Source of the DNA: Escherichia coli
Lineage (GTDB): Bacteria > Pseudomonadota > Gammaproteobacteria > Enterobacterales > Enterobacteriaceae
Length of the DNA: 1,812 nt
Direction: 5' to 3' (one strand)
NCBI RefSeq assembly: GCF_003334255.1
Contig: NZ_QOWU01000147.1
The position numbers and the translations under genes are program-made. Positions 1 to 1,812 of this stretch are shown one piece after another. A model generated the notes under the pieces. That model did no database searches. It saw only the letters and a list, made by a program, of their open reading frames with translations, and was not told the origin of the DNA. Every line of letters starts with the position of its first letter. Within the stretch, counting starts at the first letter, position 1.

Positions 1-1812
1 GAAGCACAAACGCGAGAATCCGCCCACGGTGGTATCGGAAGCCATGGCAGAACTTCGCGCCCTGCCCTCGTTTCTTGGCAACGTGCTCATTCGTGATCTG
101 GCGCGTTTAAACCGCAAACAACAAAGCGCCCGCAATGAAGGCGTGAAAAACAACAACACTCACGTGGCCGATAACTTCGTTCGCCGTGGACTGCGCACAC
201 GCCTGAAACGCATCGAACAGGTGAATGAATGCTTCGCCACGACGGCATTCAAAGCCACCGCAGCGCGTCATCGCCTTGATGAATTACTCATGCTGCCACA
301 ACTCAACCGTGATCAAATTCAGCGCCTTGCCACACTAACGGCGGCGGCATTTTCCACCGAACTGGAACGCATATGTGATGAAGTTACTGAGCGGACAGGA
401 AAAGGCGACGATAACCTGTTTACCTGGTTGCTGACTTACCAGCAGCTGGCGCGCATGGCAATAAAACTGGGCGTGAACCCACCATACTGGCCGTCACTCG
501 AGATCAGACGTGACCGCCGCACGGCACCAGACCCTGAACTGGTACCGGGCGCGGTAATGCGTATCACCTGCGCCACCTGGTGGAACAACCAGCTGCGCCA
601 CCTCGCTGATCTCTGGCGGGAGGAATTACTGCGTGCCGCCGGAAGAGTATCGCGCAAGGCATCCCCCTACATCAGCCATGAGTCACTCCAGGAATTCCGG
701 GAGAAACGCCAGCGCACCCGTGATTTTCTCAAAAGCTGGGACATTGAAAACGAAGACGGTGAACGCCTGAGCCTGGAGGACGTGTACTGGTCAGGGCTGG
801 GGAATCCGCGCAACCGCCGCAACGAGATGATGGCCTGCGTCAGAGGGATGGAACAGGTCGCCGAATCGCGTGGTGACTCCGCGTTCTTCGTGACAGTGAC
901 CTGCCCTTCCCGCTTTCACAGCGTAAACGAGGACGGCAGCCTGAACCCGAAATACAACGGTGCCACCGTGCGCGATGCCAGTGATTATCTGGTTTACGAC
1001 GTCTTTGCAGCTGCAAGAAAAAAACTCAACAAAGAAGGCCTGAGCTGGTACGGGGTGCGCACCGTTGAGCCACACCATGACGGCACACCGCACTGGCACA
1101 TGCTGGTATTCACCGCCCCGGACAATGAAGAACGCATCATTGAAATCATGCGTGACGCAGCAATCAAATCAGATCGCGCAGAACTGGGGAATGATATTTC
1201 TCCGCGCTTCAAGTGCGAAAAAATCGACCCGGCAAAAGGCACACCGGCAAGCTACATCGCAACCTATATTGGCAAGAACCTAGACGCCAGCACCTTTCAC
1301 GACAATGACCCGAAAACCGGCAAACCTTACGCCGATAAAGAATCGGGAAAAACCATGGCGGAAACCGTGGAAAACGCCATTGCCTGGGCGAGTCTCCACC
1401 GCATCCGGCAGTTCCAGTTCTTCGGTATCCCGCCCCGCCAGGTATGGCGTGAACTCCGCCGCCTTGCCGGACAAATGGAGCGTAACCCCGCATCACCGAA
1501 GCGCCTGGACCATGACGACATTGACACCATTCTGGCCGCCGCTGACGTGGGGTGTTTTGCCACCTACATCAACCGTCAGGGCGGCGTGCTCATTCCACGC
1601 AACCTGTACCTGATCCGCACCGCATACGAAACCGCAGATGAGGCCAACGACTACGGCGAATTCCCGCAGCGCATCTACGGAATTTGTGCCCCGTCGCTCG
1701 GCGAGCGCTACACCATCTGCACCCATCCGGACGAGTGGAAACTGGTCAGAAAAGAAGCGAAAGCCGACAACAGCACGGACGAGGATTTTGACGTTGGGGG
1801 CGGCTTCGCCGC
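1..1812 (+). CDS. A: Internal fragment (5' and 3' partial) of a P2/186-type phage replication initiation protein gpA, a rolling-circle HUH nicking endonuclease
   Basis: Seen in sequence: the frame with codons at 2-4, 5-7 ... 1808-1810 has no stop codon across the window, while every other frame is interrupted (longest alternative ORF about 100 codons). Codons are dominated by enterobacterial preferred ones (ctg, cgc, ccg, gaa, aaa, acc, ggc). The translation contains FFVTVTCPSRFH (884-919), EPHHDGTPHWHMLVF (1067-1111, HUH metal-binding motif H-W-H followed by hydrophobics) and SYIATYIGKN (1250-1279, tyrosine codons at 1253-1255 and 1265-1267, Y-x-x-x-Y spacing). Established knowledge: this three-motif arrangement defines superfamily I rolling-circle initiators (phiX174 gpA, P2 gpA); I recognise the HHDGTPHWH block as gpA-like from memory, not from a database search. 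The first in-frame ATG in the window is at 44-46 but the frame is already open from the window edge. Confidence 0.85.

Follow-up and report, generated by a model that had tools for sequence, protein, structure and literature searches.

Does the part of a P2-type replication initiator that precedes its catalytic motifs determine which origin the protein nicks? This question is raised by a 1,812-nucleotide stretch of Escherichia coli DNA (the window, i.e., the whole stretch that we analyzed), where an initial annotation had read nt 2-883 as the basic, low-complexity N-terminal region of a gpA-like protein, as its most variable part, and as the likely seat of any difference in origin specificity from phages P2 and 186. 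Frame +2 is open across all 1812 nt (603 codons by ORF translation), and the window DNA matches, at 99.9% identity, a chromosomal gene of E. coli STEC2018-607 (NZ_CP075697.1), an 837-codon gene labeled "replication endonuclease" in RefSeq. The window is an internal fragment of this gene, spanning codons 86-688 of 837; 85 residues are absent upstream, because window nt 2 corresponds to codon 86, and 149 are absent downstream. Numbering of the full protein is therefore that of the window translation plus 85. In NZ_CP075697.1 the gene lies in a P2-like (Peduoviridae) prophage that adjoins dmsA, and is surrounded by genes for an integrase, portal, terminases, GPO scaffold, P2-family capsid, gpM, tail protein X and LysC.

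Our searches bore out the reading of the protein as a P2/186-type gpA rolling-circle initiator. The translation matches Pfam Phage_GPA (PF05840) with an i-E of 1.6e-108 over model positions 1-320 of 321 (window residues 104-429), and PHROG 91, "nicking at origin of replication", with an E of 1.6e-225 (window residues 6-590), and tblastn against the A proteins of P2-like phages gave identities of 57% for Citrobacter phage Shae_phiSM, ~44% for Klebsiella phages and ~32% for P2. The hallmarks of the HUH nuclease fold are present, with the motifs in the family order of motif 1, HUH and Y-x3-Y. Across 148 aligned sequences, H449 and H451 of HWH and Y503 and Y507 of YIATY are invariant, as is T383 in motif 1, where F381, T385, P387 and S388 show conservation of 90% or more; an active site with two tyrosines has been described for P2 A (PMC3986222). 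The A proteins of P2 (NP_046795.1) and 186 (NP_052289.1) belong to the same Pfam family, carry the same three motifs in the same order, likewise have a helical region before motif 1, and share the anchors LP..FL, R..PR[IL]E.V, a WW..L..W.E segment, SPY.S and NP..RR.E[LM]M. Their overall identity to this protein is only 33-37%, and this protein differs from both in having ~40-50 extra residues near its true N-terminus and a longer, unrelated C-terminal tail. By every criterion examined the protein belongs with the P2 gpA proteins. RefSeq already annotates the gene accordingly, and the finding is an ordinary one.

There was no match in a PDB sequence search with the full protein as query, no NCBIfam family for the full protein or for either sub-region, and no Rfam match over the window at E values up to 1; we found no relevant paper on gpA domain function in the open-access literature searched. 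The other frames and the opposite strand of nt 2-883 hold nothing beyond short ORFs of at most 73 aa. One promoter-like site in the window, which lies on the non-coding strand and within shuffle expectation, was rejected, as were six terminator-like sites, every one of them on the non-coding strand.

Table 1. Features of the gene and of its origin. Positions are nucleotides of the window; identity is pairwise among this protein, P2 A and 186 A, coverage refers to the best 150 of 2571 relatives, and information is the value per column in the 148-sequence alignment.
Feature	Window nt	Strand	Residues or remarks	Identity	Coverage	Information (bits)
True N-terminal part			full aa 1-85		3%	0.61
N1, variable basic helical segment	2..310	+	window aa 1-103, full aa 86-188; pLDDT 84-97	22-28%	12%	0.88
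First basic stretch, RLNRKQQSARNEGVKNNNTH	104..163	+	end of helix 108-130, loop, start of helix 136-163
Second basic stretch, RRGLRTRLKRIEQ	182..220	+	within helix 136-163; includes near-invariant R155
N2a, variable charge-neutral helical segment	311..532	+	window aa 104-177, full aa 189-262	19-27%	31%	0.91
N2b, conserved helical module preceding motif 1	533..883	+	window aa 178-294, full aa 263-379	37-46%, almost gap-free	96%	2.05
Catalytic core			full aa 380-510	43-48%	98%	2.53
Motif 1, FFVTVTCPS, first beta-strand of HUH fold	884..910	+	strand 378-384 in model
Motif 2, HUH metal-binding motif, EPHHDGTPHWHML	1067..1105	+
Motif 3, two catalytic tyrosines, YIATYIGKN	1253..1279	+
Part following the core			full aa 511-688	37-42%	89%	1.79
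GC-rich origin hairpin, GCGGC-TTC-GCCGC	1800..1812	+	at window 3' edge
C-terminal tail			full aa 689-837	23-29%, many gaps	9%	0.65
Stem GGGCGC / GCGCCC			largest clade (L030, L031 and relatives)
Stem GGGCGGC / GCCGCCC			L005-L025
Stem GGGCGAC / GTCGCCC			L004, L032-L042
Stem GCGGC / GCCGC			this protein, P2, L028

Since FFVTVTCPS begins at nt 884, the region in question, nt 2-883, comprises all of the reading frame in the window up to motif 1. It contains neither the HUH nor the tyrosine motif, and the two peptides singled out as basic, RLNRKQQSARNEGVKNNNTH and RRGLRTRLKRIEQ, are located as the initial annotation had them. The description of the region as N-terminal does not stand: the annotated start is 85 codons upstream of the window, the full protein has ~379 residues before motif 1 where ~290 had been counted, and the true N-terminal 85 residues, which lie outside the window, are acidic (pI 5.0). 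The description as basic holds mildly, with a pI of 9.64 and a net charge of +9 overall, against a pI of 5.76 and a net charge of -7 for window residues 295-603, and it fails for most of the region's length, the charge being limited to window residues 1-103 (net +10, pI 11.3). Window residues 104-294 are neutral, and N2a by itself has a net charge of -1.

Comparison with shuffled sequences showed that the basic stretches as such are within chance. The maximum K+R content in 13- and 20-aa windows was not above that of shuffles, the maximum net charge in windows of 13 to 103 aa was reached by shuffles as well (P 0.37-1.0, the K+R tests included), and the K/R density of RLNRKQQSARNEGVKNNNTH did not exceed that of shuffles. 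This peptide is among the least conserved 20-residue blocks of nt 2-883 (occupancy 0.52, 0.54 bits), and at the position of RRGLRTRLKRIEQ P2 has FQRRLWPRIERV and 186 has FCKKALPRLELV. Examination of 70 homologues demonstrated that N1 has a single conserved basic column, R155 (nt 209-211), which is K or R in 80% of sequences and at least 90% conserved in a 40-sequence N-terminal alignment. What gives the charge of window residues 1-103 a meaning is the comparison among homologues and not the single sequence: residues 86-188 are net positive in 96% of the 70 homologues, with a median pI of 9.9, and the net positive charge of this segment is conserved. It is not unique to the variable arm, since the catalytic core is likewise net positive in 93% of homologues.

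We modeled the full protein with AlphaFold2 using the 148-sequence alignment, and the 294-aa fragment encoded by nt 2-883 using the 40-sequence alignment. The full-length model has a mean pLDDT of 87 and a pTM of 0.74, with pLDDT above 90 from about residue 100 to 670 and values of 84-98 in the region under study; the fragment alone reached a pLDDT of 90.3 and a pTM of 0.80, with no residue below 50. In the model, residues 86-379 are all-alpha, with helices at 95-105, 108-130, 136-163, 166-174, 178-185, 188-217, 224-240, 263-273, 276-297, 311-330, 343-349 and 354-375, and the helical region passes straight into the beta-strand that forms motif 1. Structure prediction, which had been proposed as a check of whether the part before motif 1 is a discrete fold, therefore gives a folded all-alpha region and not a disordered tail.

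These data bear directly on a view of nt 2-883 as a basic linker or tail, disordered or of low complexity, which arises from the visual impression of K/R- and N/Q-rich stretches and which we regard as highly improbable. The claim of low complexity did not survive: at 4.06 bits the sequence entropy is on a par with that of the core (4.16), and just two 12-mers reach the SEG trigger. The region does not have the properties of a low-complexity or disordered segment in either entropy or predicted confidence, its helices are confidently predicted, and the true disorder of the protein lies elsewhere, at residues 678-717 and 751-777 of the model. The helical region also showed no known DNA-binding fold, whether a winged helix, an origin-binding domain of the RepB/AAV type or a similar one, and none of the solved HUH nucleases compared (SIRV1 ORF119, the Helraiser Helitron transposase, parvovirus NS1/AAV Rep and RepB) matches it.

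Our analysis of conservation divided the region in two. Searched exhaustively, a set of 1.84 billion representative proteins returned 2571 relatives, and we calculated coverage, information content and pairwise identity by segment (Table 1); for the variable part the precise identity values are soft, as alignments at 20-25% are near the noise floor. Four lines of evidence agree on a boundary near window residues 175-180. First, among the best 150 of the 2571 relatives, 72 alignments start at full-protein residues 260-279 and 23 at 240-259. Second, the match to phrog_6857 starts at window residue 179. Third, tblastn matches in distant phages (of Vibrio, Burkholderia and Aeromonas) start at window residues 158-185. 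Fourth, the model places a loop where conservation changes, at full-protein residues 252-262. The identities and information content of the segments also fit this boundary, and so do the near-invariant residues and the basic columns. The PF05840 match itself begins further upstream, at the start of N2a (window residue 104).

Downstream of the boundary, residues 263-379 contain E360, which is invariant in 148 sequences, and W279, E292, V301, Y308, S310, G338, N353, P354, R357, R358, M362, G367 and A372, each at least 90% conserved in the same alignment, as well as eight conserved basic columns, a density near that of the core. Upstream of it, the persisting fold anchors in residues 86-262 are P107, R155 and L183. 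Window residues 1-177 thus form a helical subdomain that evolves fast, with its fold anchors retained and its sequence not, and window residues 178-294 belong to a family-wide conserved module at full-protein residues ~260-700. Because of these domain-wise data, the flagged region is a composite, variable over window residues 1-177 and then conserved over 178-294. The expectation that a domain-wise alignment against P2 and 186 would set the region apart from the catalytic core is therefore upheld for its first part, which is far more variable than the core, and contradicted for its second, which is about as conserved (37-46% against 43-48% identity). Nor is the region the most variable part of the protein, as more variation is seen in the C-terminal tail and in the 85 residues at the true N-terminus. 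A "catalytic core" taken to begin at motif 1 leaves too much out, because the conserved gpA unit starts ~115 residues earlier. Co-conservation suggests that residues 263-379 would pack on and support the nuclease, with the conserved arginines and the invariant Glu360 perhaps helping to bind single-stranded origin DNA or to shape the active site.

We then turn to the origin itself. In the P2 and 186 records the nick site is annotated within gene A, in its C-terminal third, and an intragenic origin is conserved in P2-like phages (PMC3986222). Alignment to these annotated nick sites placed the origin of the present gene at L001:13800-13837, in the segment coding for a disordered linker ~300 residues downstream of the nt 2-883 region. 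Most of the site is beyond the window end: the hairpin falls at the 3' edge, and the nick core CTTGGACTCGTGGCAATAACTGT begins 3 nt past the end (L001:13815), after the hairpin and two spacer bases. P2 and 186 have their origins at the homologous intragenic position, with a GC hairpin of 5-7 bp followed by ...GGA.T..TG.CAATAACTGT. The nick core reads CTTGGACTCGTGG here, against CTCGGAGTCCTGT in P2 and CTCGGAGTTCTGT in 186; the phage does differ from both in its nick core, at 4 of 23 positions compared with P2 and at 5 of 23 compared with 186.

Comparison of 80 IMG/VR loci together with P2 and 186 demonstrated that the origin DNA is nearly invariant across the sample, even with protein identities of just 37-57%. 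In most loci 11-12 of 13 third codon positions at the origin agree with the query, against 35-48% over residues 263-680; synonymous sites at the origin are 85-92% conserved, and with z reaching 5.1 the origin is the one place in the gene where such sites form a conserved island. For nt 2-883 the highest synonymous z was 2.6, at residues 354-366, and an embedded cis-element was rejected there because the amino acids of this segment are themselves conserved. Of 81 genes, 79 carry the hairpin (background 1.8%), whose stem varies in sequence yet remains complementary. Minimum-energy and centroid folding of the origin DNA both yield the hairpin; folding of this origin alone gave a z of -0.92, which is not significant, and it is the comparative evidence that carries the hairpin claim. 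In this clade the gene sequence directly reveals the origin, as a hairpin with CTTGGACTCGTGGCAATAACTGT in the segment coding for the disordered linker.

The proposal that the region is an origin-recognition domain, in which specificity differences from P2 and 186 reside, can be weighed against this comparison. It draws on the non-catalytic and partly variable nature of the region, on the conserved net positive charge of the first 103 window residues, and on the 4-5 of 23 nick-core positions that differ from P2 and 186. The relatives speak against placing the specificity difference in the N-terminal part: 74 of 81 loci have exactly the same 23-nt nick core, and the N-terminal part (residues 86-262) of their proteins is 21-49% identical to the query. 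Because these diverged relatives keep an identical core, N-terminal divergence does not track nick-site specificity; the nick-core classes in the sample are effectively two (P2/186 and the rest) and fully confounded with phylogeny. For example, the closest phage records by protein, Citrobacter phage Shae_phiSM and Escherichia phage 520873 (55-57% identity), and the gpA proteins of a Klebsiella/Enterobacter P2-like prophage clade (~44%) have the same nick core and domain order as here, and differ in the N-terminal variable part (21-49% identity), in their stems and in their unrelated C-terminal tails.

Nor does the class of hairpin stem go with N-terminal similarity, in either direction. At 74% N-terminal identity, this protein and that of locus L004 have different stems, while the L004 and L032 proteins share a stem at 28% identity, as do this protein and P2 at 19%. 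A search for iterons or other repeats within ~500 nt of the origin gave just short two-copy repeats at chance level. Accordingly, nt 2-883 does not show the features of a dedicated origin-binding domain, be it a fold, co-variation with the origin, or iterons.

A further argument for origin recognition comes from phiX174 A, a functional analogue of gpA, i.e., an HUH initiator with a motif 1 and two tyrosines (Y343 and Y347), a large non-catalytic part upstream and, like gpA, an origin within its own gene. The A* protein of phiX174, which is A without its N-terminal third, is not known to act on the duplex origin, and by analogy the N-terminal part of gpA could have a comparable role. The phiX174 origin is in the N-terminal coding part of its gene, as opposed to the C-terminal linker here, and when phiX174 A was aligned with the gpA profile by hhalign, the HUH motif alone aligned, with a probability of 1.6%, which is not significant. 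The A/A* analogy is consequently not a homology argument, as phiX174 A has no detectable homology to gpA outside that motif. In HUH enzymes the conserved module usually recognizes the single-stranded nick site and the adjacent hairpin. In several of the solved HUH nucleases, AAV Rep and RepB among them, it is the HUH domain that binds the origin, a solution unlike that of a separate N-terminal domain.

Taking these observations together, we consider it unlikely that nt 2-883 constitutes the origin-recognition domain. We favor, with moderate confidence, the reading that nt 2-883 encodes the ordered all-alpha front (residues 86-379 of 837) of a P2-type gpA nickase, consisting of a variable arm and a conserved module and not serving as the determinant of nick specificity. 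Under this reading the nick core and adjacent hairpin would be recognized by the conserved module, and residues 86-262 would be an accessory arm, which might make non-sequence-specific electrostatic contact with origin DNA or contact host or phage replication partners. A role of nt 2-883 in host-factor or non-specific DNA contact is possible, and the N-terminal part may contribute to the recognition of duplex origin features outside the 23-nt core.

A separate explanation of the variable subdomain is that it is an adaptor for Rep helicase, SSB, the replisome or the products of translationally coupled neighboring genes, and that it diverges with host adaptation. P2 requires the host Rep helicase, the subdomain presents a fast-evolving yet folded helical surface, and the relatives span many enterobacterial hosts (Klebsiella, Salmonella, Yersinia, Serratia and Citrobacter), all of which would agree with such a role; we nevertheless consider it doubtful, as no interaction motif was identified in the subdomain and its divergence is linear with that of the protein overall, which fits relaxed constraint equally well. 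N-terminal identity follows module identity as 1.18x - 35, a linear relation that agrees with a faster clock rather than with an exchange of domains. We can also offer, as a tentative suggestion, a more specific form in which window residues 1-177 are a lineage-specific adaptor that recruits Rep helicase or the replisome, or that enforces cis-action or self-preference of gpA among co-resident P2-like replicons sharing the nick core. If this were true, replicon compatibility would be set in window residues 1-177 and not at the nick site.

For a long-studied family, the importance of these findings beyond a tidy annotation is small. The boundaries of the favored two-part reading would guide truncation and chimera work on P2-type initiators, or the use of gpA as an HUH-tag, and they place the variable parts of gpA in its first ~260 and last ~150 residues. 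The latter part, the C-terminal tail, is mosaic even between close relatives: the L004 protein is 38% identical to the query in the tail, against 68-91% elsewhere.

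At the 3′ edge of the window we identified a replication origin lying within the gpA gene itself, in which a GC hairpin (GCGGC-TTC-GCCGC) is followed by the nick core CTTGGACTCGTGGCAATAACTGT; an origin located inside the gene is already known in P2-like phages (PMC3986222). Conservation of this nick core extends to synonymous sites, among proteins that are just 37-57% identical. The hairpin stem differs between clades by compensatory changes, and these alter the encoded amino acids as well, for example where GGC/GCC (Gly/Ala) is replaced by GAC/GTC (Asp/Val). The origin DNA falls within the coding stretch for a protein segment that is disordered in the AlphaFold2 prediction (pLDDT <50), flanked by the conserved module on one side and a small C-terminal domain on the other. 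Here gpA apparently accommodates any residues that the DNA element imposes. In the related locus L024, a single-nucleotide deletion results in a frameshifted gpA (715 aa, peptide AALGLVAITVPVY) with the origin DNA still intact; the explanation is prophage decay or else an error in sequencing.

Locations of features in and around the gpA gene (L001, locus with the complete gpA gene; aa, full-protein numbering unless marked)
Feature	Nucleotides	Protein aa	Remarks
Origin (GC hairpin, then nick core)	window 1800-1812 and beyond; L001:13800-13837
Disordered segment whose coding DNA includes the origin	L001:13778-13897	678-717	mostly past window end
C-terminal tail	L001:13811-14257	689-837	outside window, downstream
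True N-terminus	L001:11747-12001	1-85	upstream of window
phrog_12979 match	window 50-493	window 17-164	E 1.7e-6
Overlap with upstream hypothetical gene	L001:11747-11750		4 nt
Overlap with downstream gene	L001:14257-14260		4 nt
1-nt deletion in C-run directly before nick core	L024 (IMGVR_UViG_2909298281_000006), about 4490-4520

The greatest variability within gpA is found in the C-terminal tail, which in the close relative L004 is 38% identical vs 68-91% for the remaining protein, and by sequence comparison this tail looks mosaic. In the structure model, aa 779-830 of this tail fold into a small domain of helix plus beta type. At the opposite end lie the true N-terminal residues, which have an acidic pI of 5.0 and are modeled with low confidence; they include a short motif also present in P2 and 186 (AYPWNAP, AYAWNAP, AFPWNAP), a possible linear interaction motif. 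The adjoining variable N-terminal part is the only part of gpA matched by phrog_12979, a family of 189 positions and unknown function, indicating that some phage records list it as an open reading frame of its own or as a truncated one. The overlaps at both ends of the gpA gene suggest that it is translationally coupled to both neighbors, resembling phage 186, where orf84-A is annotated with translational coupling.
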